Part shown: positions 48 through 62,819 of the stretch, in pieces
How the letters are laid out: every line of letters starts with the position of its first letter
How positions within the stretch are numbered: the first letter of the stretch is position 1
From: Massalongia carnosa
Taxonomy: Eukaryota
Length of the DNA: 64,000 bases
Direction of reading: 5' to 3'
NCBI GenBank assembly: GCA_965645245.1
Contig: OZ287082.1
Location: 1,302,001-1,366,000, forward strand
Program-made: the position numbers and the translations under genes
Notes under the pieces: model-generated
The model's database searches: none
Seen by the model: only the letters and a program-made list of their open reading frames with translations
Told to the model about the DNA's origin: nothing

Positions 48-1464
48 TCACTCAAACTCGCGCGACTCCCCCGGATCGTAGACATCAAAAACTCCCCTCT
101 CCGGCAATCCCGCCCTCCTCAGCGCCTCCCTGAGCAACACCGGCGGCTCCATCGCCTCCTCCTCTGTCAGATGCCACGTGCCCCAATGCACCGCCATCGC
201 CCGTCTGCACCGCGTGTCGCGGAAGATGTTCACGCTGTCGAACGGGTTCGCGTGCAAGCCCGAGAGCAGGGCGCGCGGGTTGTACGCGCCGATGGGAATC
301 AGCCCCAGGTCGAAGGGGCCGTGCCGTTGCCCAATTTGCCGGAAGGCAGGGCACGATGGGTAGGCGTGGGCGTGGCTCGGGCCGTAGTCGTCGACATCGG
401 GCGGGAGGGATGGGACGGAGCGGTAGCCTGTGTCGCCGCTGAACCAGACGGTTTTGGTGCCGCTTGAGATGCTCCAGCTTGCCCAGAGGGAGCGGCATTT
501 GTCACCGGGGCCGCGGCCGCTGGAGTGCTGGCAGGGGAGACATTCGATGCGGGCGGTGATCGGCGCTGCATTGTCGGGTTGGCTTCCTGTGTTGAGTTGA
601 GTATCGTGGATTGCGTTCTCTGCGGGGATGCTCAGATCGTAGCCTGTCCACCAGTCCAGTTCGGTGACGAGGGCGGCAGGGGCGCCTGAGTCGGTGAACC
701 ACTTCATGTTCTGTAGCGGGACGAAGAAGTGGGCTTTCGGATGGCAGGCGATGATCTTCTTGATGGTAGGGTAATCTAGGTGATCGAAATGGTTGTGGCT
801 AGAATGTCAGCCTCTGCAGGCTTTTGTTTGTCAAAAGAGACACACCTGATAATGACTGCATCAATCTGCTACTATTAGTCGACGCATCATCATTCAAACA
901 TGCTCGAAAGAGTTTACAAATGGTATATCTTCCACTTGGCATGGCGCCTCCGTGAACCGCTTCGGGCCCAACCAAGGCAACGGCCCGAAACGAGGACTCA
1001 GGACAGGATCAAACAGCACTCGAAGGCCAGAAGGCATTTCGATGAAAACAGTAGCATGCCCTGACACGATCAGTACCTAGGACGCGTTGCCGAGAGTGAC
1101 ATACCCAGCCATGTTGCACGCAGACTGCTTGTCGACCTTGAAGAAAGGAATCGTGGCGTGTGTACTTTGATATTGGGGGGACTGGAGCCCCCTGGCGCGG
1201 TTGCAGCGCGCGTGAGCCTTCTGCAAAGCTGTTAGAATGCGCTAGTATCACCTCAAACGATGAGGCAGGACTACCTTATCCACGCTATGATGAAGTCGGA
1301 CGTGGTGGGGTCGTATGCACTGTCCCATGGATTACTGAAGCCTTTCTCGTCTTTTCGGTGGTGATCTTTATCCCTGCACTAAGTAGTCAGAGGATGCATG
1401 ACTGAATCTATCATGGCACTTGAAGCTGGACATACGACGAAGAATATTCGATAGAGCTGGACAT
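48..1464 (-). CDS. NAPE-PLD-like metallo-beta-lactamase-fold hydrolase (multi-exon)
   Basis: Manual splicing from the ATG at 1464 gives [35 protein letters not shown] (HxHxDH), [19 protein letters not shown] and AVHWGTW. Introns are GT-AG. The last exon contains the 48..707 ORF. Confidence 0.88.
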
Positions 1465-1934
1465 CGTTGGTCCTTGCTGAAGACTTGCAAGCGAGCAGCG
1501 GAAGGATGTGTGTGGGAAGTGGAAGCAGTGTAGCATTTAAGCAACAAGACAAGGTGGGCAGAAGCTATGAAACATTGCTATGCCGCTTTTAGAATACTAC
1601 TCCCTTATCGTCGCCCGCCCGTGCCGCCCGTGCCGCCCGACCGAGTTGTACAAGCGAGCCCGACAGCAGATATCCAATGTAAGAGACCCACAAGGGTTAC
1701 AGAATTTTGTATCATATCTGCAATAGCAGATGGAATCTCCTTAATGGTGGGTCATGCTTGAACTGCGTTGAAACGGGCTGTCAAAGATGGACACGAATTC
1801 ATGACTTGGAGTTGACCTGCCGATCATACTTTAACGTGCTGAGAAAGCGTTTCGCCGACTTGACGTTTCATCGACTTGATTGCAAACATTTCACTTCAAA
1901 TCGAGCGCTTAAAAGAGCAATCATCATAATCGAC

Positions 1935-4900
1935 TGTTCAGATTTGTCGGACTAACAAGCGAGACAAGCTCATACAAAATTCTCTTCTTGTAAATTTAGG
2001 CTGAGAGGATTCATGATGGATCCATCCATAAATCAATCATCTATTTCACTATCAAGAGATATTCTTCTGACGTAAATATAAATTCACCATAGAGCTCATT
2101 GTTATCATACATTCAGCTCAACAGTTATGAGCCCGGAAGCAATTCCATCGTCATATGAATAAGAATTTTCTCCTCCAAAGGTAAACCGAGAAAAATTTTG
2201 CTAATCGCACATTCAATTTGCATTAGACTTCTTAAGCTCGCAAGCCAATCAAATTCAATTCAATTGAATCAACAAATCAAGCCGCCAAGATGAACCCTAC
2301 TAATCACAAGAAAGATTATCCTAGCCAAACCAGCGGATTGGGATACCTGGTACTCTTTCGTACGGAATCGGGCCATCAACAATGGAATATGGGAGTTAGT
2401 CAACCCAGAAAAGCCTACCAAGCCAATTCACATTCCAAAACCAGTTGAACCCACATATGCTCTCCCAACAGAGACCGCACACTTTGACAAGGAGGGGTAT
2501 GAGCTACATAGGGCTCATTTTCAGGAATACAAAGGACTATTGGTCAATCATGAACGACAAAAAAAGGCCTTCATCGACTTGTTTACCTATATTCAAGAAA
2601 CTCTCTCGATAGCGAATGCCACCTACATTCAAAAAGTGGAATCGCATCCATGAGACCATCTCATAGCTCTAAAACGAAGACTTGCACCAAGCGATTCGGC
2701 TCGTGCGCTAGATATTGAAACAAAGTATCATAAGCTATGCAAGGGGCCTGGAAAGCAGGACATTGAAGCATGGTTGGAAGAATGGCAATTGGTCTGTAGC
2801 GAGGCTATAACATATAAAATCGGTGAAGCAATCGGGAATCGGCCGCTCAGAGATTTTCTTATGGCGATTCATTCAAAAGAACCAATCGCTGACAATTATC
2901 TCATGGATTTGGAGGATGGTAAATCTCAAGACCTTGATCTGTTGATCGAAAAATTTCGCCGTCTTATCCGCCTGCATCGGTCGCAAAAAGCAAAGGACAA
3001 CAACACCCATTCTGCATTTGCGGCTGAGAAAAAGGGGAAGGAAGGACAATCTGATGCATCTGGCGCAACATTTAATGGGCAAAAATCACCCAATAAGTGT
3101 CTATGTGGTTCTGTACATTGATATAGCGACTGCTACTATCTGGTGCCAGAGAAAGGACCAGCCAATTGGACCCCAAAGGCTCAAACAGAGGCTATCGTGG
3201 AAGAGGCAATGAAAAGCCAACAAGTGAAAGCAAGGGTAGAAAAATCCCTTCAACGATCAAAATCATATTCAATAAAGAGTAAGACCACCACCAACGCTAA
3301 TCAGGAAAAGGAGATAGGAGCGTTTACATCAATAAAAACCTCCTCATCATTCTCAGCAGATAGCTACACTATCAGAGATTCATGGATATTGGATAACGGA
3401 TCAAATAGCCACGTTTGCAATAGCACCATGAAATCCAGATACACACTCCAAAAGAAAGCAGTAGGGGAATATCTTATTGCGGGCACCCAACGCCTCGCAA
3501 TAGAGAGCTATGGCACAATAAAAATCACCGTACCAACCCCTACCGGACCGCAAAGCATGACACTACTTAATGTAGCATATGTGTCCAACTTCATGACCAA
3601 TCTAGTCTCTCAGGACTTGCTCTATGTTAAAGGGCTTTACTTTGATAACTGGAAACTTCACCTGCATAGGGAAGGAATGACAGTGGCCAATGTAAAGCGA
3701 TATAATGGGCACTACCTGCTAGAAGACAACACCTCAGACAATCAAGTATACGCTTTTCCAGCTCAAAAGACTGAAGTAGCTAACAATAAAGTTGCAACAG
3801 CTTTCAAAGCAACAGCTTTCAAAGCAACAGCTTCCAAAATTGCAACGGCCTACGAATGGCATCAAATGCTAGCACACGCATCGATTGAAGTCATTCAACA
3901 TCTTGAATCATCAACTAGGGGAGTAAAAATATCCAATCAAGATAATGAAGGTAAGGTGCCCAAGCCCAACGAGTGTGAGCCATACGCGCTGTCAAAAGCC
4001 CATCGCCTAGTCTCTAGATCATCAGACAATGCGGAGTCATCTAATGCACCATTTTATCGCATCACATATGATCTCATGCAGCTAAACCCAGCGATGAATA
4101 AAGATGAATGGGTATCGCACTTCGCATGCCATGCAACAGATTTTAATATGGTATTTACCCACGGTCGCAAAGGTGAGGCATCACGGATAGTGCGCGAAGC
4201 AATCAATCTTATTGAGACCCGCTTCAATGCTAAAGTAGTGTTTTTCCGATCGGAGGAGAAAGATTATTGGGAAATGATTTCAATGATCTACTGATTGATA
4301 AAGGCATAACGTACGAATCGTCCACTCCTGATACGCCAGAGCAAAATGACCATTCGGAAAGAAAAGGTGAATTCTAGTAATGAAAGCAAGGACCATGAGA
4401 ATCGACGCCGGCCTACCTATCTATCTATGGCCGGAAATCGTACGCACTGCAGGCTATATCGCTAATCGCACCCCGATGAAGAAGCATCAATGGAAAACTC
4501 CATATGAGTTAGTCATCGGAAATGCACCCGATCTAAGCCATCTTCATCAGTACGGGTGCAAGGCCTACACCTTCAACAAAAATCTACCGCGCAAAGAAAA
4601 GATGCAGGAGCGAGCCCACATAGGCCATTGGATTGGCTACGAAGCAAGAAACATCTTTCGCATATGGATTCCTAGCCAGCACAAGGTGATTCGTACCAGA
4701 GAGGTAATGTTTGATGATAGCACCGGCTATGATGCTCGCGATATCGATTTATTGCAGGCAATCAAAGAGCCAATGCTTGAAATGACTTATGAGGCAAATA
4801 GCTTGGATCCTATAACACTAATCACTGAGATAGAATTGGATGAAGAGGAAGGAATAAAAGGGGGAAGTACTGACAAAATTTCCTCTTCACCAAAGGAGAA

Positions 4901-5280
4901 AGAGAGATCTTACTTACCAACACCAGCCCCATCTGATTCTGATTCTATTTCCACCACTACAAGCAGTAGTACTAACACTAACAGAGCTCCTAAAGAAGTC
5001 AACCCTAACTTCGATATTCAAAATATCTTACCTGAGGGGGTGGGAAGACGACGAACCCGAAATCAGCGCAAAGAAGCGTACTCAACAGCACTAATACAGG
5101 CATCTAATGGTGAATTGGACTCATCATGCCGCTTTCTCAGCACATATCAAGACAAGTTCATATGCTTCTAATCATCGAGAGCTTAAGAGCGATCAACATC
5201 ATCCCAAAATCAATCATTTTCATAGAGATAGCTTACCCAACGAGCCAGAACACTATCGCCAGATGCTGAAACACCTTGAT
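1935..5280 (+). mobile_element. Ty1/copia LTR retrotransposon, degenerate and 3'-truncated before RT
   Basis: The probable LTR ends TCAACA at 2123 and is followed by PBS GTTATGAGCCC. Gag from ~2290 has a CLCGSVH knuckle, then protease WILDNGSNSH, WHQMLAH, and integrase-SH3 YGCKAY...IGYE. There are in-frame stops and frameshifts. The LTR start at 1935 is tentative. Confidence 0.85.
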
Positions 5281-5454
5281 AAGACAATCTTTTTCGATAA
5301 AGTGAGTAAACTTATCAATAATATTAGTCCTATTGCTGATTATTGGCGCAAATGTGACGGCAGACGTTGCAAATTCGATTTTCGATCCATCAGTATAAAA
5401 CAATACTCGCGATTTATCGGAATTCATTGATTGAATATTCGAAACTGTCGAATA

Positions 5455-5625
5455 TGTAACGGTTCGACCAAGTGTGGTGCGGACGGCAGGACCTACAGCG
5501 AACATAGCAGGAGTCCCAGTTATAGTAGAATAGAGCTTGGTCTGCGGACTAAGTATTGTGCCTTTTGGTCGGGAAGGACAGGTGGCGCAATGGTAGAAAT
5601 CTATTCACTATCTCGCTTCGTCACA
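5455..5625 (+). mobile_element. Solo LTR, family A (171 bp), TSD GAATA
   Basis: TGTAAC...GTCACA ends with an exact 5-bp flanking duplication. Near-identical copies lie at 18191, 19210 and 54853. Confidence 0.92.
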
Positions 5626-6076
5626 GAATAATAACTCGATTTCGCTTTTTCTTTTGAATTTTTAATTTGAACTTAATTTTACAAGACGATTTCCATGGTT
5701 TAATCACTTTATTTACTTGTTCGAATTCATCAGTTTTGTGAACTATGTCCGAAACGGATTGTCCCTACTATGATGTTCTCTGAATGCAAAGGGATCAGTG
5801 GCCATCAATGATTGTGCTCGGAGTTAGTAACTATTACTCGGAATGACTCAACAGCACTAGTAGGGGTTTACCCGAAGATTGACCGATAATCTTCTGATTA
5901 GCATTGCCAGTCTTCCTTATCGAATTTGGCTGCGGTATCTTCAGAGCACTGATAATTGCAAGCAACGGCCGAATTAATGGTTTAAACAATTGAAGCTATA
6001 GAAAGCTTTGGTGCTTAGGCCCCACCCGCTAGGCCGGCTCAGTGCCATATTATACATGATGTAGTATATAAAACAG

Positions 6077-7830
6077 TCAATCTCGCCTTCTAGGAGGTCT
6101 CACTATCCTCCCAGAAGCCGTATATACAGGCAATACCGTCACAGCGTCCTTGATTTTATGTATTCCCTCACTTCGGGCCTTGGCTGACTTCCTGCCTCTT
6201 TTACCTCTCATCCCTTTACCCCTAACATCCTGTATCTCAGTCTGTAGAGCGAACTCTGGATCCTTATTCTCTAAGCAAGGCTCTGGCGGAGCAAGTGTTG
6301 AAGGGTCTAAATCGATGGAAATTGGCTGGATAGCCTGTGCTTTCTTATTTGTCTTGTTTTTCAGACTTTGAGGTTTGGGCTCTGCAATGAGGCTCCACAC
6401 AGATTTCTAGGCCTCCCAGAACTCCTTCTCTTGTTTATCTGCACGCTTCTTCTTCATCTCCCGTTCTTCGAGGACGTCATGATTCATTATATGTCCTTTA
6501 CCGAGCTGTTGATTTGAATGTTTGGCCTTCTCCTTTTTACACTGTTGATTCTCCAACAATTCAGTATTTGTAGTCTCTAGTAACACCTTCTCGACGTACG
6601 CTATTGATCCAGCCTTGCCTAGCCTCATAATCTCTTGCTGAGTAGCCTTCCCATCAATAGCTTTGTGGACGATTTCATCGAATTCAGCTGCATTTCTTGG
6701 AGTCTTGATAGGAGCGGATATAGAGACGCCATCCGACGATCGGAAGAATAATTCTGGTGGCGTATACGGCCTTAGAGTAACAGTGTTTATCACATCTTTC
6801 GGCTGTGGCAATGTCTTCAAAAGACTCTCTGGATCCAGAGGAAATAGAAGTGCTTTCTGCCAAGCATTGAGAATAGTAGTGAGTTTGACTGTCTCACTCC
6901 GAGCTCGTTGATATAAATCAATGAAATCGACCTTATCCACGTTAGCACTGCTATCCCACTTTATCAGACGCAGTAGCTCGGTCCGATAGAGACTCCCCAG
7001 TGGCTGAAAGAAACCCACATCTAACGGCTCGAGTACGTGAGTCGTGTGAGCTGGAAGGCAAGCAAGAATAATCTTCTCATTGATACAGAATTGGATAACT
7101 TCCGACGTAATATGAGAAGTATGCCCGTCGAGGATAAGCAAGCGATATTCGCCTTGTTGTCGCTTCTTCGAATATGGATCAAATACACGTTTATACCATT
7201 CGAAAGCGAGTGTATTATTGGTCCAGCCCTTGTCACTGATAGCGATGTTATTACCTCGCTCCAATTCATTAATCGAGGCCTTCCTTTGAGTCGTTGCTTT
7301 AAAGATGACGAAAGCAGGAAGAAGTGCTCCATCTGCAGAGATACATTCAAGAAGAGACACCCATTCCCGGCTCCCATTCTGACAAATGTATGCATTGAGG
7401 TTTGCCTTTGAAACCACTACTTTCTGCCTGCCTGCTTGGCCTATTGCAAAGCCCTTCTCGTCCATATTATATACGTCTCTTTTTTCAATGTTGTATTGCT
7501 TCATTGTATCCGAAAAGAGCTTAAACCAATGATTGATTGTTTCGTAATTGACTGCATTGATGCGCTCTTTATCTAACGGAGTGCAAAAGCGAGATTTTAC
7601 CGAATGATGTCGATTCAAGAACTTCTCCACCCAGTGATATCCCAATGGGGTATGATTTCCTCTTTTTTTGAGGATCTCTTCTGCTTGTAACTTGATTCGA
7701 TAAATCATTGGAGGGAATCCCCATTTGACCAATAATTCGATCCAGTTTACTAAGCATTCCTCCTCAATGAAAGTGAGGCGTTGTTGGGCTTGATGAGCTT
7801 TGTGATGAGGTAATGTTTCTCCTTTGTATC
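6077..7830 (-). mobile_element. pogo/Fot1-type DDD transposase, disrupted
   Basis: ORF 6407..7732 carries YNMDEKGF, SDKGWT, LLILDGHTSH and LPAHTTHVLEPLDVG. The 5' end is cut by the LINE tail at ~7835 and the C-terminus is broken at ~6405. Confidence 0.88.
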
Positions 7831-7837
7831 ATCGATA

Positions 7838-9945
7838 TAATGATGATGATGATTGATTCTTGTACCGATCTGACACCGGCCGAAGGCCGGCCCATGCGGG
7901 CTATCTACTTATTCTTACAGGGAAAACCTTTTAAAGGGATAAAAACCATGTAGACTGCGCCATTATCCTAAACGTGTTCCGTTTCTGGACTGCATTCTTC
8001 GCTCGATGTTCTGTGAAATCCTTGACAAAATGAGAGTTATCACTCGTATAACAGTTGCGATGCTAGTGAAAATTGGGTCAGCAAATTTGCTTTTATTATC
8101 CATGTGGTTAGTTTTTTCAACATTTTCGACGAGCTCATGATCGTTCGATAGTCGTTGGTGCCTATTTGTTTTAGCACTTCGTATCTGCCGTCGATTAGCC
8201 TGCAATGTAGAATAATGTGTTTGGCTGTCTGCTTCTGCCATCCGCACGAGCAGGCCGGGGTCATAACGCCCGGTACCCGACGATTGAACAGGAAGTTTGC
8301 CAAGCCTATTTTTTCGGTGCGGATTTGCGTGGTTAGCGCGCTTTCCGCTTTCATCAGGTTGTTGTGAATCTTCAGTCTCGTCCTACTGAGAGATCCCAAC
8401 TGTGCCTCTGTCGGGCGGGGAATGCGGTTCTGGTACGTCTTCCATTTGGAGTCCCAGCGTTCCTTGATGCGTTCTGTGGTGGCCTTTGTGTGTTTCTCTA
8501 TGATATGGCGTGTCGTGGTGCATTTTTCGAGGTGCGCCGGGTCGGGTGTGGACCAGGGCGGGGACGATGGGGGCATTGTGACTGGTGCCTCGTTATTCAA
8601 CATTTTGCTGGCCCATTCGTATTTCAACTCTCCTGGGGTGAGGTGTTGCGTTCTTTTGCGTCCTGCCTTACCCCCTAGCTTGTTCGCTATTGTGTTTCAG
8701 GCTTTGGAAATCAGTTTCGCCTGCCCTGCGGCCCGTAGACGATACCTTGATTTTATCTGTAGATTGTCCAGATGCAACTCCATGGGGGCGATGAACGTTT
8801 CCGCTTCGAGAACTTCGACGGGTGTTGCCTTGAACGCCCCTGTCACGGTGCGTAAGCATTTGTTCTGCATGACGCTGAGTTTGGACGTCGTGGCCTTGTT
8901 TTTCTTGATTTCCCTGGGTGTGTGCCACACGGTGCTTCCATAAGTCATTGCCGGGCGAACGACGGTGGTGTAAACCTGCCGGGCCTTCGCGAAAGAAGCT
9001 CCCCAGGTAGATGTCGATATTTTTGTGAGCGCCAGCGACTACGACGTCATCTTTTCCTGTGTTTTCCGTATGTGGGCTCCCCATTTCAATTTGGTGTCGA
9101 TTTGGAGGCCCAGAACTCGTATGTCCGTTTTCGGTTCTATTAGGTTGTTTTCTATTTGAATAGTAGCTGACATGTCGAATTTCTTTGGATTTTTGGACAA
9201 ATGAATGAGCTCATACTTATCCGGTGCAAATACGGACCCGTGGCGTGCCGCCCATAGTTCGCATTTTCTGTGCATTCTTTCGAGGGTTCTGCAGTTTTCT
9301 TCCGTGCTTTTGCCGTATGCCAACACATTTACGTCGTCTACAAATCCGGGCGCGCTCGTGTTTGTGCCGGGTCTCTCGCATATCTCTAAAAGGTCCGCAT
9401 TGTAGAACAGGTAGAGAATAGGGGAAATGGGTAAGCCTTGAGGAATGCCCGTGCGCACCGCGAACTCCTCGGTTACTCGCCGGTTTATCGTTAGCGTGGT
9501 TCTTCTTTCCTTCAGAAAGCTTGCCGTCCAGTCTGTGATCCATTTCGGGATTTTCCTTTTTCGCAGATTGTGTATCAGCCTGCGATGAGACACTGTGTCG
9601 AATGCGCCTGCTACATCCATGCTGAGGAGAGTTGCCACCTTGTTGTTGCCTTGTCCCCATACAGTGTGTACCTGTTCGGTGAGGAGTTCGAGCGCAGACT
9701 CGGTAGATCGGCCACGCCGAGCACCCATTTGTGTGTCCGGCAGGAGCCGGTGCTGTTCCGCTATATGAGTGATCTTCCTTGCGATGACTGCTTCTAACAC
9801 CTTACCCATTGTGTTCAGTAAAGCTATGGGTCTGTATGCCTTTGTACTGGTATTGTCTTTCTTTCCCGGTTTTCTGAGCGCGATCGTGTTTGCTCTTTTG
9901 AACTCGCGGGGAATCGTCGATATAATGTTGTATGACAAACATTGT
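7838..9945 (-). mobile_element. Tad1-like LINE, 5'-truncated, with (CAT)n tail
   Basis: RT motifs YRPIALLNTMGKVLE, MDVAGAFD, GIPQG and FVDD, plus a C-terminal CSCG..HIILHC finger. It ends in a 3' stem-loop and ATCATCATC tail. Stops and a frameshift occur at ~9039 and ~8690. Confidence 0.9.
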
Positions 9946-9949
9946 ATTT

Positions 9950-10620
9950 GTTGACATATTGGCGGAATGAAGGCTAGGCTTCACTTGCTTAGGCTTTATT
10001 TCAGGCTGGAGTTCATATTCATCCCACCGCTTGATAGCTTTGGCAAAGGAGATCAGAGCAAGCTCCATGCGCTCACGCCTTGGGATGACCTCTGTATCTG
10101 ATTCCCCTTCTAATGGGTCTTCCTCAACAGCTTGCATGATATTTTGGTAACGGAGGGATGGCTAGGCCAGGCGCTGAGACCAATTATAGCTTCAATGGCC
10201 AGAGTTGAGGGTTGATGAGTAGGTATAGGTCAATTGGCTGATTTGTAAGGGCTGTTGAGACGCTACAGTATAAATTTTGGTAGGCATGCTTCGCATCGGA
10301 TATAAACCCCTACTAGTGCTGTTGCATATCGAGGTTTGTTGCATATCCCAGTCATCCCGAGTAGTCTCCATGCATTGTCTTTGTTTTTTTTTTTTTTTTT
10401 TGAGACGGAGGCGATAAGGGCACTCATTGAACGAAACTTTGATATTGGCTCGCACCCGGTCTTCCTCCTCTACTTTTCTAGTGTTTTTGACTCTTTTGTG
10501 GTGGCGTGTGTAGTATAATACAATTAAATCATTTTTCTTATCATGAGTTTCTGTGACCAACGCGAAGCCTTGAGTGAAGGCATAGTCTTGAAGACGAGTC
10601 TTTGCCTCCTCTCAAGACGA
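9950..10620 (-). pseudogene. Possible Mutator/FAR1-like transposon remnant
   Basis: Fragments EAKTRLQDYAFTQGFALV and NECPYRLRL resemble the FAR1-type DNA-binding region. The frame is broken by a poly-T run. Confidence 0.35.
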
Positions 10621-10966
10621 AAATAACTCATTCTCTTGCGGAGGGAGGAGGTGAGGTGAGGATAGAAGGGCAATGGCATGTTGCTTCCGTGCATCCAAAG
10701 AAGTGGGATCGAACAAGACCCTCAATGGGCCATGACCAAGGGCCAGGCTGGACAGCATCGCCGAAGACATTAAAAGCATATCCTACAAGAGTCAATGTCT
10801 ATTTGTAAGAGGCTGAATCGATAAAGAACAGGCAACTCTTGAGTCGAAAACTGTAGCCACACTCTAGTTCGGTCACTGGTAACATGTATTGAGAAGGCAT
10901 GAGAGATTCCTGTGATAGCGCATGTAGTTAGATCCTACTTTCCTACAATACATCTGACTCGATTCC

Positions 10967-11770
10967 TCATTTGAGCGCTCTCCCTCCGTCACTTTCTACG
11001 ATAGTCCCGGTCACAAAAGCGCTTCTCATGCAATAGACGTAAGACTCGGCAATTTCGTCCGGTGCCCCAACTTTGTCAAGCAAGGCCGAGTCCTTGTAAC
11101 TGTCCAGCACCACCTGTAATGCCTCGGGCGGCACGTTGAGAAACAACTCCGTAAGGACCACCCCCGGGCTCACAACATTGACCCTTATCGGCGCCAAGTC
11201 CACCGCAAGACCGCGCATGATGCCCTCGACCCCAGAGCTCCAAGCAGCCTGCACTGCCCAACCCTTTGCCGGCCGCCGGGACATGGTGCCACTGGTCAAC
11301 GTGATGGATGATGCGGAGCCAGGATTCATATAAGCCGGCGCCAGCTTCGCCAGCAGTAACGGCCCGAGGAACCGCACCGTGCCCGCAGCGAGGATGTTCT
11401 CCGTGGATGTCTCCCGCACCGACGCCACGCGGATCGCATCTCCTGCCGTGAAGACGATGTGGTCGAGCTTGACGCCGCCAGTGCTCTGGGCAATGGAGTC
11501 GAGCAGCACCCGCAGGTTGGCCTCGAGAGCTGCTGGGTCCGCCAGGTCGCACGCGTGGCCGCTGATGTTCGAGATGTTGTCCGGGTGGGCGTCGTGGAGC
11601 CGCTGCATCGCGGCGTCGATCTTGGACTGGCTTGAGCTGGCAAGAATGACGTGCGCGCCTTGAGCGACGGTGGCGGAGGCGACGCCGAAACCTATGCCCG
11701 AGGAGCCGCCGATGACCAGAACTCGGGCATCGCGGAGCCTATCGAGGTAGCTTGCAGTGGGCAACGACAT
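10967..11770 (-). CDS. Atypical short-chain dehydrogenase/reductase, MalC/PhqE-like
   Basis: Single exon. Motifs are VLVIGGSSGIG (Rossmann), CDL, HIVFTAGD, TVRF, ITLTSG, GW and RVNVVSPG, with no YxxxK. The start may be 11788 or 11770. Confidence 0.9.
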   Translation of the reverse strand: MSLPTASYLDRLRDARVLVIGGSSGIGFGVASATVAQGAHVILASSSQSKIDAAMQRLHDAHPDNISNISGHACDLADPAALEANLRVLLDSIAQSTGGVKLDHIVFTAGDAIRVASVRETSTENILAAGTVRFLGPLLLAKLAPAYMNPGSASSITLTSGTMSRRPAKGWAVQAAWSSGVEGIMRGLAVDLAPIRVNVVSPGVVLTELFLNVPPEALQVVLDSYKDSALLDKVGAPDEIAESYVYCMRSAFVTGTIVESDGGRALK

Positions 11771-24344: not shown

Positions 24345-24356
24345 CGTTCATATAGA

Positions 24357-34408: not shown

Positions 34409-37400
34409 ATGATCATGGACTCTTTAACAGCGTGTGATGACGATATCGCCATCATTGGTATGTCATGTAGAGTAAGTGGTGCGAACACTCCCTCGGAGCT
34501 GTGGAACAACTTGGTCTCGTCCAAGGAATGCCAGCACGAGATCGACCGGTTCAATATAGCAGGATTTTACCACAAGTCTGGAGGACGAAGGCAAGGCCTT
34601 ACGAATGTTCGCCATGCCTACTTCCTGGACGAGGGAGTCGACAAGTTTGATCACGACTTCTTCTCCATATCTCCTCGTGAAGCTTCTGCTATGGATCCCC
34701 AGCAGCGATTACTACTTGAGATTGCATATGAAGCGCTTGAAAATGCAGGTATACCGCTTGAAAAAGCCGTTGGAACTGACACGGCTGTGTATGTAGGTAT
34801 GTATTCACTCTTCTGCTTGGAACGATCAAGTTCTTATCCAAAACACTATTAGGATTATCGACCAGTGACTATGCTGCGAATAATCTCCGCGACATTGATT
34901 CACTGCCTGAGTACCACTCAACAGGAGCGGCAAATGCTATGGCGGCGAACAGGGTAAGCTATTTTTTTGACTGGCATGGACCATCAATGGTCATCGACAC
35001 AGCTTGCTCGTCGACTGCAACGGCGCTTCATCAAGCGATCTTGGGCTTAAAAACGAAGGATACCACAATGGCTTTGGTTTGCGGTTCGAATCTGATCATC
35101 AGCCCAGATATGTTCGTACACATGTCAACGCTTGGATTCTTGAGCCCTAGTGGAAATTGCAAGAGCTTTGATTCCTCTGCAGACGGCTATGCTCGAGGTG
35201 AAGGGGTGACAGCAATCTTGTTAAAGCCTTTCAAGGAAGCGTTAAGTGCAGAAGACCCAGTTCGCGCCGTAATCAAAGGATCCAGGGTCAATCAGGATGG
35301 TCGGACAAGCGGCATCACATCACCATCGTCAGAAGCTCAACGACGAAACATAGAACAGCTCTATAGCATTAAGAAACTTGATCCTGGTAGCATCCAGTAC
35401 GTAGAAGCTCATGTAAGCCTTCACCCCTACCCAACTTGTTTACGTAAAAGAGCTGAACGATGTTTTAGGGTACTGGAACATCAGCCGGAGACCCTTGCGA
35501 ACTATCTGCACTCAACGAGATCTTCAGGAAATCCCATACGATACAGAAGCTCATTGTTGGTTCTGTCAAGAGTAACATCGGGCATCTAGAAGCTAGTGCG
35601 GCCTTGATAAGCATTGTACTAAAGCTTTGCCATGAGAAAGTCAAGTTAATGCTAATGGAATGAACAGATCAAAACCGTTGAATGCCTCGAAAGGGGCTGG
35701 ATACCACCACAGATGCACTTTCGAGAACCCAATCCGAATATTGACTTCTCCACAATTGAAATTCCAACCAAGACTCTAAAATGGCCAGAAAGTGGAAGTG
35801 GAGTAAGACGCGCAGCAGTCAATTCTTTTGGCTTCGGTGGAACTAACGGCCATATCGTGCTTGACCATTTCCCCAAGCGCGTTTTGAAACCTTCCATCTC
35901 TGACCGACCTTTCTTGTTCAAAGTATCGGCAACATCAGAGTCCTCTCTTTATCTACTATCGGACAAATACGCAGATTATGCTCTTACTCACTTGCCCAAC
36001 CTCATGGATCTTGCGCATACATTATTGACTCATCGTTCATCTTTTAGAAGGACTCTATACTTCACAGCTTCCAGCCATGCCGATTTCGCCGAGAAACTTC
36101 GGCAGCTAAGGGAGCAGCAGACTACATCATTAGCGAGGAGCCCATCCTCAAGCAAGGAGTTGGCGTTTGTTTTTACTGGCCAGGGAGCGCAATGGTATGA
36201 AATTACTCAGGTTCCCACTGATTATTCACACAGCTGATCCATTTAGGGCTGGCATGGGGAGAGGACTGCTAAACCATTCACCAAGTTTTACTGCGATAAT
36301 CAAACGATGTGACGATGCCCTTGCGGAGCTACCGAGCGGTCCCACTTGGACCATTCAGTCTCAGCTGAGCCAGCCACCAGAGACATCATTTCTCCATGTC
36401 CCAAGTGTTTCTCAAGTTGTTTGCACAGCGCTTCAGATCGGACTTGTTGCAATCTGGAAGACGTGGGGTCTGAAGCCGTCAGTTGTTCTGGGGCACTCTT
36501 CAGGGGAAATAGCTGCCGCATACACCGCGGGGATGTTATCCCTACGTGATTCTATGGCCATAGCTTTCTATCGAGGTGCTTGCATGGGCGACGATGGACA
36601 ACTTTCTATCCAGAACTTTAATGGCGCAATGTGTGTCGTTAGCATGAACGAAGTCGAATGCGAAGCCACTCTCTCTCCCTATGAGGGCCGCGTGGCACTG
36701 GCTGCCGTCAACTCACCTACCAGCTGTACTCTGTCCGGAGATCGAGATGCCATTGACGAGATCTTAGTATCTTGTAAAGCGGACGGCATTTTCTGCAGAG
36801 CGCTGCGGTTAAACGTCGGTATGTATTCTGTATCGAATCCTTCTCAGAAATCCCAAGAGAAAGACCTCCCGTTCGAAATAAACCGGAATGACTGACGAAC
36901 TCCAGCCTATCACTCTCGCCATATGCTTCCGTTTGCGCCGTCTTATATCCAGGATTTGGTGAATGCCGACATATCTCCTCTCAATGTCGAGGAAGAGTCA
37001 CCATGTGAAATGTTCTCTTCGGTCACACAGCGAAAGATAAGTGCACAAGAGCTCTTGCCGGTCTACTGGGCCCAGAACATGGTCTCTACAGTCCGCTTTG
37101 CGGCAGCATTGAAGGAAGCTAGCCGGTACCATAAGGATCTCGCATTTCTTGAGATAGGGCCGCATCCCGCACTCAAATCCGCCGTGATAGATACCATGGC
37201 TGCTACGGGCCTACCAGATGTTACATACTTCCATTCTTGCCATCGATACGAATCGGACTTTGAGACTATGCTGAAATCAGCTGGCGAAATGATTGATGCA
37301 GGTTTACCTATTAATCGCACATCAATCAATAGGGTGGACAGGATGATCGAGTCTAATCTAGTACATGAAACCGGTAGCGTATTAACAGATCTGCCCAGTT

Positions 37401-40400
37401 ATCAATGGGACCATAAGACGTCTTGTTGGGCGGAGACACGAGCAAATTGGAACCTAAGACACCGGAGATTTCCTCGCCATCCATTACTAGGCGCTAGGGC
37501 GTATGGCGATGGTCCTCTCGGCTTGAGCTGGCGTAATAAACTGATACTGAGTGAGGTTAAATGGGTAGAAGAACTAATTGTAAAATGCCTTGTCGCCCTT
37601 CAAAGCCTAAGTTTCTGACTATTGCTCTAGGTATCCGAGTCGGTTCCCTTATTCCCAGCAGTGCTTTTGGTCATGCTACTCGAGGCAGCAAGACAGGCCA
37701 AAGATTATCCACATCTTCGGTCTTGTACTATTGAGCTTGTCAGTTTGATTTTTGTTGACACTGAACTGGACATGGCACCTAGTTCTAAATACGGCCAGAT
37801 TGAAACGATTCTAAATCTCCGGCCCAACGATGACAACTCGGCTTTTCAAGTCGAAATCTTGATTACACCCGATGGGTCGGACTCTTCGTGGAAGAAATGC
37901 TGCACGGCCGATTTGAGATTCATCGCACAAAAACACCCCCTTGTGGAAAAGCTAGGTGACCTTGTTGAACACGATGAAGCGTTGAGTGAACAGATCAAAA
38001 TTCTACGCCCGCCATTAGTTCAGGGGATACAAAACCTGCAGCTAGGAAGGAGCTTCGCTAAAGGTTATATGAATCAACGCAACGTGGATGATGACTATCT
38101 CATGGATGGGAATATAGCTGCATTGCTATTCAAGATCTCACAAACCTTGATGCTTGCGTCGGGGCCCCTTGCAAAGTTCCGTACATATCGTATAGACCAC
38201 CTGGAGTTAACGCAAACTAATTTTCGGCCTGATGCTACTGAGTTCTACGCATCAACAACAAGACTCAGTCCAATCAAGGGTCTTTCTAGTATCTACATCC
38301 TCGATGTCAATGGTATCTGGATTGACTGCCAAAAGCTGGAAACACAAGTGCAAAACATATGCCAGGCACCCCCCCGGCTAGAGTCACTTTTCTTCAAGCC
38401 GCGGATTCTTTTGGATGTGAGCCAAATGCAAACGTCTCATCCACTCAACATATACGAGGCCCTTGAGCTTGTCACTCATAAGTGGCCCATGAGTGACATT
38501 GGCGCCATCGAAATCTCAAACAACGATGTCGATATCATCCGATCGTGTTTGAACGCTGATAAAATTGGCGCAAGACTGTGTTTCCGCTCAATCAGTCTGC
38601 TGCGACCCAAGTCAGACAGGAACTTACGACGTACCAAAATAGTCCAAAGCTTTAAACAAGAGCAATTTCACCTCATCCTCGGCGAAATGCGTCACGTTAT
38701 CTTCCACATCTCGTCCCTCACGCAATACGGGCTCGTTTGTGCCAAGCTAAAGTCGGAAAGCGATCGGGACTTGCTTGGTCGCCACCTCGACTTCATCTGC
38801 GATGTTCGAGGGCTGACTTCCCAAGGGTGGATCCTTGGTCGCCCAAAGCCTTGGAAAGACTTGGCTCTCCCTAATCATTCCTTGAGAATCCTTACTACCA
38901 AAGAATATACTTTCAGGGACTCGTTCCAGCATCGGCCTTTCGACCTCACAGTTATGGAGCCTGGAATGCCTCTCACAGCTTTACAGGTGGAAGCCTGGAA
39001 GTCTAATGATATTATAGTCATGGACGTTGGGATTAGATCTGTTCTAATAGATTGGACCGGGAACTGTTTGCTGCCTTGGGTAAAAGCTCTTATTAAGCAT
39101 GCAAAAAATTTGTTGTGGGTCACCCAAAAAACCAGCGATGATCCATTCAACAGCGTAGCGGGAGCGTTCATCAAGACGATCCGCTCGGAGCAGCCTACGA
39201 TACAAGCTAGTAGTGTGGTAGTACAGGATTCGATTGATCTTTCAAGTGTCAATGGCTTGATCTCCAATGTCTTTGACAGGATCGTGACTGGCCATATCGA
39301 GGGAGAATATATTGTTCGGGATTCTAAGGTCCATATTCTTCGATATCATCCTGACGATGATCTAGCTGCTTCTGTCGGGGTAGTCCCATACCATTGGTCA
39401 ATCGCTGCGCTTAATGACAACTTCTATACAGTCTCAATCGCAGCAGTCAAGCAAGCACTTATTTTCTCGAGTGGACATAGGCCATCAGCAAAAACTTTGC
39501 ATGGTTCTGTTTGGGTCCGCGTTAATGCTTCTGTCATCGATCATTGGGATAATGCTCAATTTATGGGCCATGCAAACTCACAAGTTCAGGAGCAAGGGGT
39601 TGGTCAATTTTTCTGCGGAACATTTTTGTCAGGTGCTAATTGCGCCTTCAAACCGGGTAACACGGTGGTTGGCTGGCTACCTGAAGCCCACAAGTCACAT
39701 TTGCTTGTACCCATTGGACAGCTGCGTCTACTACCTAATGTGATGGCAGAAACTGATGCATTGGCATTTTGTGCAGTATACTCCACGGCTCTAGCTATAT
39801 TGCAAAGCATAGGGAAGCATTCGTTCGACAAGGCGTTGGACATTCAAGTGTCTGGAGTTCTTGGAGAAGCATTGGTCAAGCTTTGTCAAGCTCGAGGCAT
39901 TCGAATTTGCGATGACAGAACATGCGGGCCTGCCTATATCTTGGCTTTCGATCAACAATCTGGCTTCAACGTAGATGGAAACCCAATATCATTGGCTGGT
40001 CGTACAATGTCCCATCTACTAGCCGAATCGTTATCAATGATGACCGAAGAAAGGTTTCGCTTGCAGGAAGCTCCGCAGTGTTTCAATCTCTCTGAGACTC
40101 AAACAGCATTCGAGGTTGCATCGTCGCATCTGCTTTCTACGGTTCTTGTTCATTCTGGCAAAGATCAGCCTCTCGAGCATGTCATACAAGCTTGCCCTGA
40201 GCAGGTGCTTTTTCGGGACGATGGCTGGTATATTCTCGCCGGTGGCCTTGGGGGTTTAGGACGATATCTAATGAAATGGATGGCTTTCAAAGGAGCAGCA
40301 CATTTTTTGATTCTGAGTCGTTCAGGACACGTCACAGAGTTTGCCGAATCAACTATCCAAGCGGTTCAGCATCTCGGTGCACAGATCAAGGTCGTTAAAT

Positions 40401-43400
40401 GTGACACGTGCGATTCAAGAGCAGTCACAGATGCTTTTGTAAATGCAAGAAAATCCCGACCTATTCGAGGGTGTTTAAACCTGGTCCTTCAGCTGGCCAA
40501 TTCACCCTTAGATACCATGACATCAGAGCAATGGGACGCAACTCTGCAATCAAAAGTGAGATCCAGTTGGAATCTCCATCAAGCGACGCTTTTCGACGGT
40601 CTTGATATGTTCATCATGTTTTCCTCTATTTCTTCGATTTTGGGAAACAGGACACAAGCAAATTACGCAGTTGGCAACGCCTTTCAAAACTCTCTTGCAG
40701 AATATCGAAAATCAATTAGCCTGCCTGGAATCGCCATAGCTTTGGGGGCCATGTGCGATATCGGCGTACTTTCAGAAAATAAGGACCTCTTGCAAACACT
40801 TCGTAAAAGTGGCATGTTATCCCTGAAACCCGACAAATTGCTTAAGATCTTCGAGGCGGCCGTTCTTGAGTCACGTTCAATCAACAGAACACTTTTGGTC
40901 ACGGGGCTTGAGATGTTCAAAAAGCTTGACGGGACTGTACAGTCATCTCTGGCGCAAAATCAAATATTCTGGGCCGACTGGCCCGAATTTGGAGGGTTGT
41001 TCGATCATGAGTCCAGCATTACGGAGGTCAAATTACTTACGTTACTACAGCGCCTTGAAACATTGGAACTCGAGAAGGCCCACGAGGTCCTATGCCGCGA
41101 GTTCGTTATCTGCCTCGGAAATCTCTTGGGTACAGACACGTCAGATATTGATCTGACAGCTCCCTTGGCTTCGTATGGTTTGGACTCTCTCAATGCGGTC
41201 TCTTTTAGATACTGGTTTTTCAAGCGTGAGCAACGAGTTGATACCCATCACAGAGGACATAGGTACTAACGATAGTGTAGAGCTTGAGGTCGACGTGGCA
41301 GTTTTTGATATACTAGGGTCTAAATCGGTGCATGACCTGGTTACGAGAGTATTAGCCAAACTGAGCATAAAGCCGCAGGTCACCCAAAATATTATTTTAC
41401 CGAAGCCTATTCGACATGATAAACGCTCTCTTCAGATTCGACCTATCTCTCATTCTCAAAATCGATTGTGGTTTCTCCATAATTATCTGTCTGATAAGAC
41501 AGTCTATAATCTGCTTCTTGTGTGTCGTATGTCTTCAAAACCTGATGTTGTTCGATTTGTCAAAGCTTGGTCCATCTTCATGCGTCGACACGAGATACTC
41601 CACTCATGCATATGCGAGACCGCGGAAGGTTGGCAGCAAGTTCTTTTGGAGAAGTTTGCCTTTCCACTCAAGGTTGTTGAGGCCACATGTGCGGACTTCC
41701 ACGGGCAAGACCAAGAGATAAAACGCGCTGCCAAAGACTACGAGTTCAACCCAGGATCTGGTGACGTCATTCGTGGTTGGCTACTAATATCTGACAGCCA
41801 ATATCGCTTCTATTTGGCTTCCCATCACATGGTATGGGATCGGGCTTCGGTGAAGACGATTTTCAAAGAGACTTCTACTATTTACAAGGCTCTTATGTGT
41901 GGAGAGGCACCGGAAACCTATCTCGACCCTGTTCCCTATCAATTCGTCGATTATGCTATTTGGCAAAAGGAATGCATGGCACAAGACTCTCTAACACAGT
42001 TTCACCTGGACTACTGGAAGCATCAGCTTGCAGGGGCACCTGAGGCTGTGTCCCTTCTGCCTAATGCCGTCGCAGATACGAGACCTCTCACTAAACAACA
42101 TAGCAGTAGTACAGTCATGGTGCAGTTCAATTCCACCAAAACTCTTTCTTTGAAGGGCCTATGCAAGGCAAACGCTGTCACTCCCTTCATGCTTATGGTG
42201 TCTACCCTGAGTGTGCTTATTCATCGATTGACTAATGACACTGATATCATTATTGGTATTGCTGATGGAGACAGAGGTCACCCGGAATTTGACAATCTCG
42301 TTGGTTTCACCGTTAACATGTTGGCAATTCGTTGTAAAGTTGACCCTAAGTCCTCATACGCGACTGTTTTGGAGCAACATCGGAAGGTTTGTTTCGAAGC
42401 TTACGAACATCGCTCAGTGCCATTTGAGTATCTATTGCAGAAATTAGACGTACCGCGGCGGTTGAGTCATAGTCCAATTTTTCAAGTCACTGTGAATTAT
42501 CAGATGGAAGGAGCCTTCCCCCAATGCGATTATGGAAATTTCAAGTTCACAGAATATGAGCATTTCAATACAAATTCTCAGTCGGATTTTAGTCTAGATA
42601 TTGAAGAAACCACCACTGGCGAATACAGTTTTACTTTTACGTACGATACTTCTTTATATGCTGCTGCTGCGATTCACGATCTTGCTGAGCGGTTCACAAC
42701 CTTGACGGACAGTATACTCGAGACAAACGCGAGTTCGTCAATCGAGACTCTGAATCTAATGACAGAAAAGGATCAAGAACTGATGGCCGCTTCACTTCGT
42801 CCCGTGTTTGACCAGCAATTTTCGCTCGATGAGTTGAACCGAGACCTATTTCGCATCCTCTTTGAACGTGCGGTAGCCAAATATCCGCAAAAGACGGCAA
42901 TCATCGACGCTCACAGGGAGATCACGTATGCCGAACTCGATGCAATAACGACCCGAATCGCTCGATACTTGGTCCAATATGACATCCGTAAAGGTGGGCG
43001 CATTGGAGTATACTGTTTTCCAGGGTTAGACATGGTTCTAGCAATATATGGCATCCTCAGAGCTGGCTTTGCATACGTACCGCTTGACTCCGACTTTTCG
43101 GAGAATCGTGTAGATACAATAGTCGAAGATGCTAAAATAAGTGTTATCCTTACCGATGGTATAAACAAGCGCGAGCTCATCCGGCTTTCCGCGGCAGGAG
43201 TGACAATAACAAGTATATGTTATATCCTCAAATCCTTGACCCAGGTGAACGAGCGGGAGATTCAGCCATGCACTTGGCAGACAGGAGAATCGGAGACTTT
43301 CTGCTGCATCTATACCAGTGGGAGTACTGGCTGTCCTAAGGGCATAGAGATTGGCCACCAGCAGTTACGGTATCAAATGGAAGGCTACCACAAGTTCATA

Positions 43401-46162
43401 GGTACTGGCCAGTTCGATAGACTACTTCTGGCGTCGTCAATAACCTTCGACATGTCACTAACCTCCATATTTGGGACGATTCTGCATTGTGCGACTATGG
43501 TAGTTGCTCCCAGAGAAGGTACCGACTCTTAACTTATTCAAGATTTCAGGATGATATATGAAGTTGACATACTAATAGCGCGACTTTCTTCTATCGAAAT
43601 GATCGACTTCGTGGTAAAAAATGGCGTCTCCAGTTGCACACTCACGACAACCCAGCTGAAGATGCTTCTGTCGTCGCCTGTCAGAGATCGTCTTTCGAAA
43701 TGGACTTCATTGCGAAGCATAGTCATTGGAGGAGAGAAGATACCTCCTTGGGTTATCAGAGACTTTTACAGTCTCGGACTTGATAATGCATCAATCTTCA
43801 ATGGCTACGGGCCGGCTGAGAGTACTGTCTGCAATTCTTTGCGGAAGTATGTTTTCTTATAAATGTAATTTGGCGTAACTAAGAGCTGATGGAGAATAGA
43901 TTACATCTAGAGGATAGTGAAAGACCTAGAGTGCCCCTGGCGCCTCCCCTATTTCCTGCAAAGTTCTACATTTTAGACGAGCATTGCAATCCAGCGCCAA
44001 TTGGTGTACCGGGTGAACTTTACATTGGTGGCCCCACGATCAGCAAAGGCTACCTCAATCGGGCTGATTTGACTGAGGCAGCTTTCTTGAAGGCTTCATC
44101 ATTGCTCGGTCTGACGCATGAACAGGGCACTCTATACCGAACGAGAGACTCTTTCCGGCTAACGTATGATGGCACTTTGGAGGTGCTCGGTCGTGTGGTT
44201 GGTGATCGGCAAGTTAAGATTCGAGGAATCCGTATAGAGCTTGAAGAGATTGAGAATGTCATTTACCAAATTCTAAGGGACCCTAAAATCTTGGAAGTTA
44301 GTCAAGTATCTCTAGTCGCTGTCATTTATTACGATATCAATGGTATTGATGGCATTTTGGCTGCGTATCTGATGATAGAGGACGGCATACCCCACCAGGA
44401 TGATCAGCACAGTCTTCTAAAGGCCTGGCTTCGTTCCGCGGTCAGTACTTTATTACCTATACATATGCGGCCGAGTGCCTTCGTTGTTCTACACAATCTG
44501 CCGAAGACAAGTTCCGGAAAGATCGACTACCAAACAATGCTAACGTGGCCTCTCCCTGAGCCTGAAGCTGCAAATGGTAACACAACAGATCTCGAAACCT
44601 CTCTGAACAAGCTTCAAACGGAGATTGCTGGCGTGTGGAAATTGGTTCTTGGTCTAGACGGCAACCTGTCCCAGGACGACGATTTTTTTACAATTGGTGG
44701 CCACTCTTTGCTACTTATGCAAGTACAACACGAGATCAAGGAGCACTTTGGCGTCTCTATTTCACTCGGAGATATGTTCTCAAACCCAACGATTCAAGGA
44801 TTTGAGCGTCTCGTCGCGAGCCATCGGTATCCGCGCCATGGACTTGAATGCAATGGCCTACAAGCTGACGAAGTCAACAATTCAAATACAGCTCACATGG
44901 ATAACCGGCGTGATTTGGACGGAGTTGACGACTCTATCGACTGGGACGTCGAAACGTCTCTCCCTGATTTGATCAAGCCACTTGAGGGCATGCATAAGGT
45001 CGGATCGATGGCCAACATTGCAATCACAGGAGCCTGTACGATGACAGGCTCTCATTTCCTCGAGCACATCCTCTCAACAACTTCGGCTATGATCCATTGC
45101 ATCGCTACAGAAGGTGACGATACGAAACATGCACGTATTAACGTCCTTCGCAAGCTAGACCATTGGCAACTTCTACAACGCATTCCAGCACAAGATTTAG
45201 ATCGTCTAATCATATATTCAGGCAGTCTCTCGCACCCAACATTAGGCTTGACAGCTACACAAGTTGCACACCTCGATAAGGAAGTTGATGCAATATTCCA
45301 GCTAGACTCCGAAGTCTCTCTATTAAAACGATACGAAAGCCTTCGAGCCAGCAATGTCGACTCGCTTAAATTCCTGATATCGCTTGCACATAGCAAAGTC
45401 AACAATATCAAAGCCATTTATCACCTGTCCACATGGGCGGTTCCGCACCTACAATCATGGACGAAAACCAAGCTATCAAGCAACGATTTACTCACCCACG
45501 AAGTCGAGATGACCAATATCAAGCCCGGTAGCGATGGCACGCTGGGTTATCTAAAAGCTCGGTGGGTCTGCGAAGTCCTGCTTTATCGCGCTGCCCGCTG
45601 CGGAATCCCTGTGACAATCTTCCGCGCCTCGATGTGCGGCGGTTCATCCGTCATCGGCGTACCTCTGGATCGTACGGACATCAATCGCCGTATCTTGGAG
45701 ACGAGTTTGCAAACTGGTCTAGTCCCCAACTTTAGCAGCGCAGCTGGTGGCGGTATGAGCTGGATAAGCGTTGATTTTCTCGTTCGGAGCATTGTTTTCT
45801 TGTCGCAGCAACGGCAGCAGCAGCGACGCCAGCTGCTAGGTGAAGGTGCCGAGATTTACCACATTGTTGCGGATGAGCATATCCCATACACGAGCCTGCC
45901 GGACGTGCTGAATACGGGCTATGATGGAAGCCTGTTGCGATCGGCGAGTCCTGAGCAGTGGTTTGAGGCCTTAAGAGCTACTAGTAACAAGGAGATGGCG
46001 ATGCAGGCGGAGGTCCTGGAGCAGTGGGTGGAGGCGGGATGGGTACCTTTTCCTCTGCGTGCGGAGAAGACGAAGGCGCTTCTGAAGAAGGCGTCTATCG
46101 AACCTGCCAGCGTAGATCGCAAATTCTTGATGAGACTCGTGGTCGGGGACCAAGGGTTTTAG
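34409..46162 (+). CDS. Hybrid iterative PKS-NRPS: KS-AT-DH0-pseudoMT-ER0-KR-ACP-C-A-T-R*
   Basis: Nine GT-AG introns splice into one open frame. Motifs: KS DTACSS, HGTGT, GHLE; AT GHSSG, AYHS; KR GGLGGLG, QANYAVGN; ACP GLDSL; C HHMVWD; A YTSGSTGCPKG, FDMS, NGYGPAE, QVKIRGIRIEL, PKTSSGKID; T GGHSL; then a terminal SDR-fold domain. Confidence 0.96.
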
Positions 46163-62815: not shown

Positions 62816-62819
62816 ATCC

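Follow-up and report, generated by a model that had tools for sequence, protein, structure and literature searches.

The window analysed here, a 64,000-nucleotide stretch of the Massalongia carnosa genome (contig OZ287082.1), carries a gene for a hybrid of polyketide synthase and nonribosomal peptide synthetase (PKS-NRPS) together with eight further genes, all set among transposable elements (TEs). It is intron-rich fungal DNA throughout, with a GC content of 42-57%. Families were assigned by a Pfam scan of all 264 stop-to-stop open reading frames (ORFs) of at least 70 aa, at a cut-off of E 1e-3 or better, and of a further 100 ORFs from the gene regions that were shorter or had been covered already. 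An earlier note on this DNA had listed nine apparently intact genes with only TEs between them, and both observations hold: the families it named were all found by Pfam, no gene shows a break other than GT-AG introns, and the gaps contain only transposon families among the 264 ORFs. Fully spliced, stop-free models were built for four of the genes (the PKS-NRPS, a cytochrome P450, a first transporter and a transcription factor) and a fifth is a single ORF, while the remaining four were followed as traced exons only. The synthase and the four genes that accompany it in a relative are the following.

34409..46162, forward strand: hybrid PKS-NRPS; 10 exons, 9 introns, 11,217 nt, 3738 aa
12595..14807, forward strand: cytochrome P450; 11 exons, 10 introns, 522 aa, model without a stop
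10967..11770, reverse strand: atypical short-chain dehydrogenase/reductase (SDR); single ORF, 267 aa, divergent from the P450
20957..23032, reverse strand: MFS1, a DHA2/TRI12-like exporter of the major facilitator superfamily (MFS); 6 exons, 568 aa
24357..26799, reverse strand: Zn2Cys6/Fungal_trans transcription factor (TF); 3 exons, 749 aa

The ORF map of the synthase seemed fragmented, but each break proved to be a GT-AG intron of 52-87 nt, and the joined model has no internal stop. Its residues 11-3714 align to a 3873-aa metagenome protein (P0002) at 41.6% identity. Pfam returned the full series from KS to NAD_binding_4 over 34406-46159(+), including Condensation (E 7.8e-69), AMP-binding (7.5e-43) and PF07993 (NAD_binding_4, 6.3e-33) as well as KS, AT and PP-binding. 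We read the domain order as KS-AT-DH(?)-psiCMeT-psiKR/ER0-KR-ACP-C-A-T-R-like. The catalytic motifs run through the whole protein: DTACSS, HGTGT and NIGH in KS, GHSSG in AT, GGLGGLG and YAVGN in KR, GLDSL in ACP, HHMVWD in C, SGSTGCPKG, GELYIGG and SGKID in A, and GGHSL in T, with the A7 motif reading YRTRD and not YRTGD. Of the marks of a hybrid PKS-NRPS it has the Cys-His-His residues of KS, the GHSxG of AT, the DSL serine of ACP, a fused C-A-T and a C-terminal R/R*-like domain. The A-domain code was read as DMTTVGGVCK, and the pattern D-M-x-x-V-G-G-[VI]-x-K is common to nine of 14 aligned relatives. Altogether, the synthase is real and intact.

The interval between DH and KR gave nothing in Pfam or PDB sequence searches. 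When aligned by hhalign to six canonical hybrids it is collinear through DH, CMeT, psiKR and ER0, with a probability of 96% at 16% identity. An active C-methyltransferase, with the S-adenosylmethionine (SAM) motif ExGxGxG, is common among fungal hybrid PKS-NRPSs and is not a defining feature. Here the surroundings of CMeT carry long deletions relative to the canonical hybrids, the hhalign alignment places IEISNNDV where LEIGAGTGG forms the SAM motif, and methyltransferase Pfam families are absent both from the 264 window ORFs and from the relative P0119. By these alignments the SAM motif has been lost and the CMeT is dead. In DH the histidine motif HPLLG is present, and Pfam, at its cut-off of E 1e-3, returned no PS-DH match.

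Compared with canonical tetramate or pyrrolinone hybrids that have an active CMeT (such as PsoA, PDB 9x29, and P0075 from Nemania), the window synthase shares their overall order, KS-AT-DH-(CMeT)-psiKR/ER0-KR-ACP-C-A-T-R, and against PsoA its KR region scores E 5e-25 and its R region 7e-14. It differs from them in the lost SAM motif, in an overall identity of only about 30%, found in pieces, and in an end domain that has Arg in place of the triad Lys along with the extra family motifs DINRRILE and GGGMSW. It is also some 300 aa shorter; the distance from DH start to KR start is 894 aa in its relative P0119 and 1165 aa in P0075.

This family was recovered with the C-A exon as query, which returned many fungal hybrids, 3620-3725 aa long, in which Pfam sees no methyltransferase family. 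Fifteen full-length relatives share 38.9-46.7% identity with the model, 13 of them as a single high-scoring segment pair, whereas for nine canonical hybrids with a CMeT the identity is no higher than 28.6-31.4% and is split over two to three pieces. The closest is in a Letrouitia subvulpina metagenome-assembled genome (MAG; 46.7%), and the rest include Aspergillus sclerotioniger and A. sclerotiicarbonarius (44%), Lasiodiplodia and Hymenoscyphus fraxineus (43%), and Orbilia and its relatives (41-43%). MAGs of lichen fungi (Letrouitia, Pycnora, Gyalolechia) give the best matches of the synthase, of its PKS half and of a second transporter in the window, at only 41-63% identity, a hint and no more of Lecanoromycete ancestry. 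A search with the end domain against 1.84 billion representatives gave 44 matches at E 1e-30 or better; 19 of these score at least 283 bits (40-60% identity), and the next long match stands at 193 bits. Judged by these scores, the end-domain family is small but real.

The family has been catalogued. Four relatives, P0119, P0123, P0161 and P0378, have accessions that are clade Ia-a entries in Table S2 of PMC7421883; the entries are PWY95188, PYI12323, PLB45025 and KAB2573439, and these listed members or their 90% cluster mates are 41-44% identical to the window synthase end to end. Clade Ia-a comprises 16 clusters with no predicted product (Minami et al. 2020, PMC7421883, Table S2). The 13 of 16 rows with enough sequence all carry an "x" for hydrolase, trans-acting enoyl reductase (trans-ER), flavin-dependent monooxygenase (FMO) and pyranonigrin-type P450, and name "P450" as the key modification enzyme (PMC7421883, Table S2); we take the "x" to mean absence, since in the pyranonigrin rows the FMO and P450 cells are empty. 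The same paper places the family in major clade Ia, adjoining the pyranonigrin, xyrrolin, cyclopiazonic acid and pyridone clades, and states that for these new clades the products mostly escaped prediction. We found no characterised member of the synthase family in the literature, and a Verticillium survey merely gives KAB2573439 as a top BLAST hit.

The window synthase resembles clade Ia-a in having a P450 partner that is conserved, in lacking a hydrolase and a trans-ER, and in being 41-44% identical to four of the members listed, where other hybrids come to about 30%. It could be a member of the clade or its sister, a placement made by pairwise identity and not by a tree. The window copy differs from the clade in being rearranged and transposon-invaded; its SDR, MFS and TF partners are not tabulated in Table S2. 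The earlier note had remarked on the lack of a trans-ER. The lack itself is borne out, as no ADH_N or ADH_zinc_N family occurs among the 264 ORFs, in cis or nearby, and P0119 likewise has no ADH_zinc family, but it is the rule in clade Ia-a and not the peculiarity it was taken for. Likewise, the note's view that the gene set matches no recognised cluster stands for characterised pathways, among which we found no match, and fails for the synthase family, which was already on record.

Conserved partner genes

The P450 matches Pfam in pieces (14003-14197 and 14571-14804, forward strand) and carries the I-helix AGxxT, the ExxR and the FGYGTHACPGR motifs. The SDR gives PF23441 over 10970-11809(-) at E 2.2e-62 and has GGSSGIG without a canonical YxxxK. 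Its PDB matches are 6nkh (E 4.4e-60) and 6nkk and 6nkm (about 2e-50), all deposited as "Short chain dehydrogenase" and matched over the whole length at roughly 41% identity, as counted from the alignment. MFS1 contains MFS_1 at 21427-22630(-). The TF contains Fungal_trans at 25160-26584(-), E 7.8e-19, and a CX2CX6CX6CX2CX6C motif that runs across intron 1.

To find related loci, a profile of the family-specific end domain was scanned over JGI metagenome contigs, which yielded 81 matching stretches and 16 confirmed loci. All 16 were then searched with 18 ORF pieces taken from the remaining eight genes of the window, at a cut-off of E 1e-3, the visible part of the relatives being the 3' flanks of their synthases. 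Four near-identical loci (L001, L002, L004 and L010) represent one lineage, whose synthase is about 48% identical to that of the window over the available part. In this lineage the synthase stop is followed directly by a P450 (-), an SDR (+), an MFS (-) and a Zn2Cys6 factor (-), which together fit into 10 kb free of transposons. They are collinear with the window genes in tblastx, at identities of 60-69% for the P450 (four exon pieces), 54-55% for the SDR, 61-78% for MFS1 and 39-52% for the TF. Since these values equal or exceed that of the synthase, the partners are best taken as orthologues and not as chance members of large families. The P450 is collinear from residue 58 to 522, in three main pieces at 61-68% and an N-terminal piece (residues 58-90) at 42%. 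Relative orientation is conserved in the divergent P450/SDR pair and in the MFS-TF tandem, while the window and this lineage differ in where the synthase lies and in how the P450/SDR pair is oriented. Four of the nine synthase introns coincide with breaks in the L010 alignment. A further locus, L009, has a synthase 39-41% identical to that of the window and retains MFS1 (41-58%) and the TF (25-32%).

Synteny was the check on which membership of the left-hand genes had been made to depend, and the SDR, P450, MFS1 and TF do adjoin the synthase in the L010 lineage. As it extends to these four partners, the supported cluster has five genes and not nine. We therefore propose, with a probability of about 70%, a real and apparently functional secondary-metabolite cluster whose conserved core consists of the PKS-NRPS, the P450, the atypical SDR, the DHA2-type MFS and the Zn2Cys6 TF; in the window this core is found in rearranged form, with high-copy transposons inserted into it.

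Several findings pull the other way. The four-gene block occurs in one lineage only (4/16 loci), and 11 of the 16 loci have no match to any partner gene in the flank that is visible. Among these are three PKS-NRPS lineages, L003, L005/L006 and L007, whose visible 3' flank spans 3-10 kb; in L005/L006 it contains TRAP-alpha and a GNAT gene, and in L003 and L007 nothing recognisable. No 9- or 10-mer is common to at least four promoters, and CGG-Nx-CCG sites occur in only three of 10 promoter regions. A young retrotransposon sits 580 nt from the synthase stop; rearrangement may have uncoupled the regulation of the genes. In the synthase itself DH activity is doubtful, the Asp of the canonical HPxxxD falling in a gap of the profile alignment, which is at 16% identity.

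Other observations were made at the related loci. Between the MFS and the TF, L010 has a 306-aa ORF (18028-18945) with no Pfam family and no counterpart in the window. The P450 is interrupted by 10 introns in the window, and L010 encodes 337 aa of it unbroken (11620-13208). Three loci, L014, L015 and L016 (about 3840-10600), match the KS-AT, KR and end-domain parts of the model, the end domain at 40-47%, and do not match C-A; in these a PKS may be fused directly to the R-like domain of the family. Finally, a sequencing run from a second organism in another study (X4) contains 46% of the sampled synthase 31-mers (36300-46200) and covers the SDR-P450 region at a depth of 2-4, from which we conclude that a close relative carries the locus.

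Proposed release and tailoring of the product

The end domain would be the part that releases the product. It is R-like, and among solved structures it comes closest to MxaA (E 4e-21) and to the type I PKS 8v1x (E 2e-16). Its glycine motif, TGACTMTG, has the form GxxTxxG and not GxxGxxG, and at position 5 the family has G, S or T. The Thr and Tyr of the catalytic triad are kept (GYLKARW), but in each of the 15 aligned family sequences Arg stands where YxxxK has its Lys. The combination that marks a thioester reductase R domain, GxxGxxG with Ser/Thr-Tyr-Lys, is thus incomplete. A useful comparison is CpaS, whose R* domain is the Dieckmann cyclase of cyclopiazonic acid synthesis, a type marked by a replaced triad Tyr and by release that needs no NADPH. 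CpaS belongs to the same major clade Ia (PMC7421883) and, like the window synthase, ends in an R-like domain and has no partner hydrolase. The two differ at the triad Tyr, which the window domain retains and which is Leu in CpaS (PMC3202784). We found no alpha/beta-hydrolase ("Knoevenagelase") family among the 264 window ORFs by Pfam at E 1e-3, and the clade I scheme of PMC7421883 ties the absence of a hydrolase to tetramates.

In the pathway that we propose, the PKS part would make an unmethylated chain without enoyl reduction. The C domain would couple this chain to one alpha-amino acid, selected by an A domain whose code retains what we take to be Asp235 and Lys517 and recurs in most family members. 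The R-like end domain would then free the product, the P450 and the SDR would tailor it, MFS1 would export it and the TF would turn the genes on. For the release step we lean slightly towards a non-reductive Dieckmann cyclisation giving a 3-acyl-tetramic acid, to which we give about an even chance. The placement in clade Ia, the absence of a hydrolase, the GxxTxxG motif and the Arg at the triad Lys position argue for it; the retained triad Tyr speaks against it, as does the fact that the best solved relative, MxaA, is a true reductase. A tetramate is accordingly named here as a possible product.

The strongest competitor keeps the same five-gene core and lets the end domain work as a thioester reductase. 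Its product would be a polyketide-amino aldehyde, which would close to a pyrrolinone or imine and then be reduced by the SDR. The kept Tyr and upstream Thr, the tolerance of G, S or T at position 5 of the glycine motif and the kinship with MxaA and 8v1x are all consistent with this, and the SDR itself lends some support. The structures 6nkh, 6nkk and 6nkm are probably those of MalC and PhqE, a link between codes and names for which a literature search found no printed statement. These homologues of the SDR, PhqE and MalC, reportedly act after reductive release from an NRPS. One preprint describes PhqE and MalC as NADPH-dependent reductase/Diels-Alderases (10.1101/2024.12.10.627567). Against reductive release stand the invariant Arg and the lack of a hydrolase both in the window and in clade Ia-a. 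Weighing these points, we put an aldehyde product, made by reductive release, at somewhat below even odds.

The likeness to MalC and PhqE also raises the question whether the SDR could do more than reduce. It keeps the residues aligned with D108 and R130 of 6nkh, but has Ala at the position of D165 (Asn in L010); these three are presumably the MalC residues with a catalytic role, and the set that would mark a MalC/PhqE-type enzyme is thus broken. Furthermore, the pathway context differs, as the window has no prenyltransferase and no dipeptide NRPS. That the SDR is a reductase/pericyclase acting on the released polyketide-amino-acid intermediate, and not a plain tailoring reductase, therefore seems to us a long shot. 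If it were true, the clusters of clade Ia-a would yield a cyclised scaffold through a PKS-NRPS and an SDR-type Diels-Alderase, with the end domain (Tyr kept, Lys to Arg) supplying the reactive intermediate. To our knowledge, no such pairing has been described.

Outer genes and transposon blocks

Four more genes lie in the window.

48..1500, reverse strand: metallo-beta-lactamase (MBL)-fold gene, NAPE-PLD-like; at least 4 exons traced, 5' end approximate
28251..29590, forward strand: PTH11-like membrane protein (Fung_rhodopsin); 3 introns, exons traced
30860..32547, reverse strand: MFS2; exons traced from the homologues P0228 and P0229, 3' end not fixed
32974..33673, reverse strand: small "secreted" gene; signal-peptide-like first exon and a 155-aa ORF, divergent from the synthase

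The MBL gene contains Lactamase_B_2 at 51-806(-), E 2.7e-19. Its sole PDB match is N-acyl-phosphatidylethanolamine phospholipase D (NAPE-PLD; 4qn9, E 1.2e-34), and with the metal motif HNHFDH it also has the HxHxDH expected of that type. It is probably a flanking housekeeping gene of lipid metabolism that lies outside the cluster. The PTH11-like gene matches PF20684 at E 3.1e-33 over 28185-29587(+), with two weak end pieces. MFS2 shows MFS_1 pieces at 31527-32312(-) and looks intact once a 15-aa mini-exon near 31068-31112 is recognised; its best homologue is in the Gyalolechia MAG. The secreted ORF has no Pfam family, and an Atlas look-up gave scores of only 0.77-0.83, all below 0.9.

The earlier note had joined all nine genes, from MBL to synthase, into one cluster. 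This is supported for the synthase, SDR, P450, MFS1 and TF, but the MBL, PTH11-like, MFS2 and secreted genes find no match in the visible 3' flanks of the 16 loci. In favour of the larger cluster, no unrelated gene, only transposon families, separates its members, and the secreted gene and the synthase share a divergent promoter region of about 730 nt; the 5' flanks of the relatives, outside our view, could contain the remaining genes. Nevertheless, the MBL gene is NAPE-PLD-like and 9 kb of transposons separate it from the rest, and PTH11-like proteins and a second MFS are often passengers in clusters. We consider a nine-gene cluster unlikely, and regard the PTH11-like, MFS2 and secreted genes as possible passengers.

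The TEs form three blocks and one young element.

1700..10766, no strand assigned: transposon block 1; copia fragment, pogo-like DDE_1 transposase, LINE reverse transcriptase
15030..19786, no strand assigned: transposon block 2; LINE tail, 45-nt tandem repeat, repeats common to blocks 1 and 3
46742..52498, forward strand: young copia long terminal repeat (LTR) retrotransposon, 5.76 kb, located 3' of the synthase stop
52499..64000, no strand assigned: transposon block 3; DDE_1, copia RVT_2, hAT and DDE_3 by Pfam

Over the window Pfam identified copia (Pol_BBD, SH3_retrovirus, RVT_2), pogo-like DDE_1 with HTH_Tnp_Tc5, LINE RVT_1, hAT and DDE_3 families. Block 1 contains Pol_BBD, SH3_retrovirus, DDE_1, HTH_Tnp_Tc5 and RVT_1, and block 2 contains repeat families D3-D6 and I1-I6. 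Copy number was judged from contigs of three public DNA runs over 1700-21699. Two stretches, 10766-15030 and 19786 onward, are at unique depth, and in run X1 single contigs cover both with zero differences. Over 1700-10766 and 15030-19786 the contigs add up to between 5 and about 340x the unique depth (5-240x in block 1 in run X1, up to about 340x in block 2). The TE-free stretch is 19786-46700. The blocks at 1700-10766 and 15030-19786 thus divide the locus into three parts, namely the MBL gene, the SDR-P450 pair, and the run of MFS1, TF, PTH11-like, MFS2, secreted and synthase genes. No contig from the second organism, among those over 1700-21699, spans a transposon block. The young copia element has 170-nt terminal repeats that are 100% identical and an open 1453-aa pol ORF with Pol_BBD, SH3_retrovirus and RVT_2; a target-site duplication was sought at the ends of the exact repeats and none matching was seen. 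Indices of repeat-induced point mutation (RIP), computed for transposons and genes, gave no suggestion of RIP.

Some repeats deserve separate mention. At 17708-18374 the summed depth reaches about 340x unique in run X1 and about 690x in run X3, so the source genome must contain very many copies of this repeat family. A unit of about 175 nt is copied at 5454, 18188, 19209 and 54850. The 45-nt tandem repeat (16281-16457) lies inside a long ORF-like stretch of block 2, and at 61641-61923 there is a 14-nt minisatellite with some 15 copies or more.

That the locus is a decaying or silent relic, with open ORFs but a pathway inactivated by transposons and rearrangement, is very improbable: the three blocks and the young copia element so close to the synthase would fit it, and the seven in-frame stops in the DH-KR region of the L003 synthase (160-1818; this copy may be a pseudogene, or an assembly error) show that decay does occur in the family, but none of the nine models needed a frameshift or a stop, the catalytic motifs are intact, and the transposons lie between the genes and never inside them.

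Meaning for clade Ia-a

The locus is a five-gene core cluster of moderate interest in a catalogued but uncharacterised clade. Its value is that of a well-delimited target for genome mining and not of a new principle. It also provides a case in which a conserved cluster retains all its ORFs open while active transposons split it. Clade Ia-a is a published group of fungal PKS-NRPSs with no assigned product, and the window and its compact relative L010 together define a minimal set for it: synthase, P450, SDR, MFS and TF. This five-gene set is a target that can be expressed, both to find the compound and to settle how an end domain that retains Tyr and lacks Lys releases its product.

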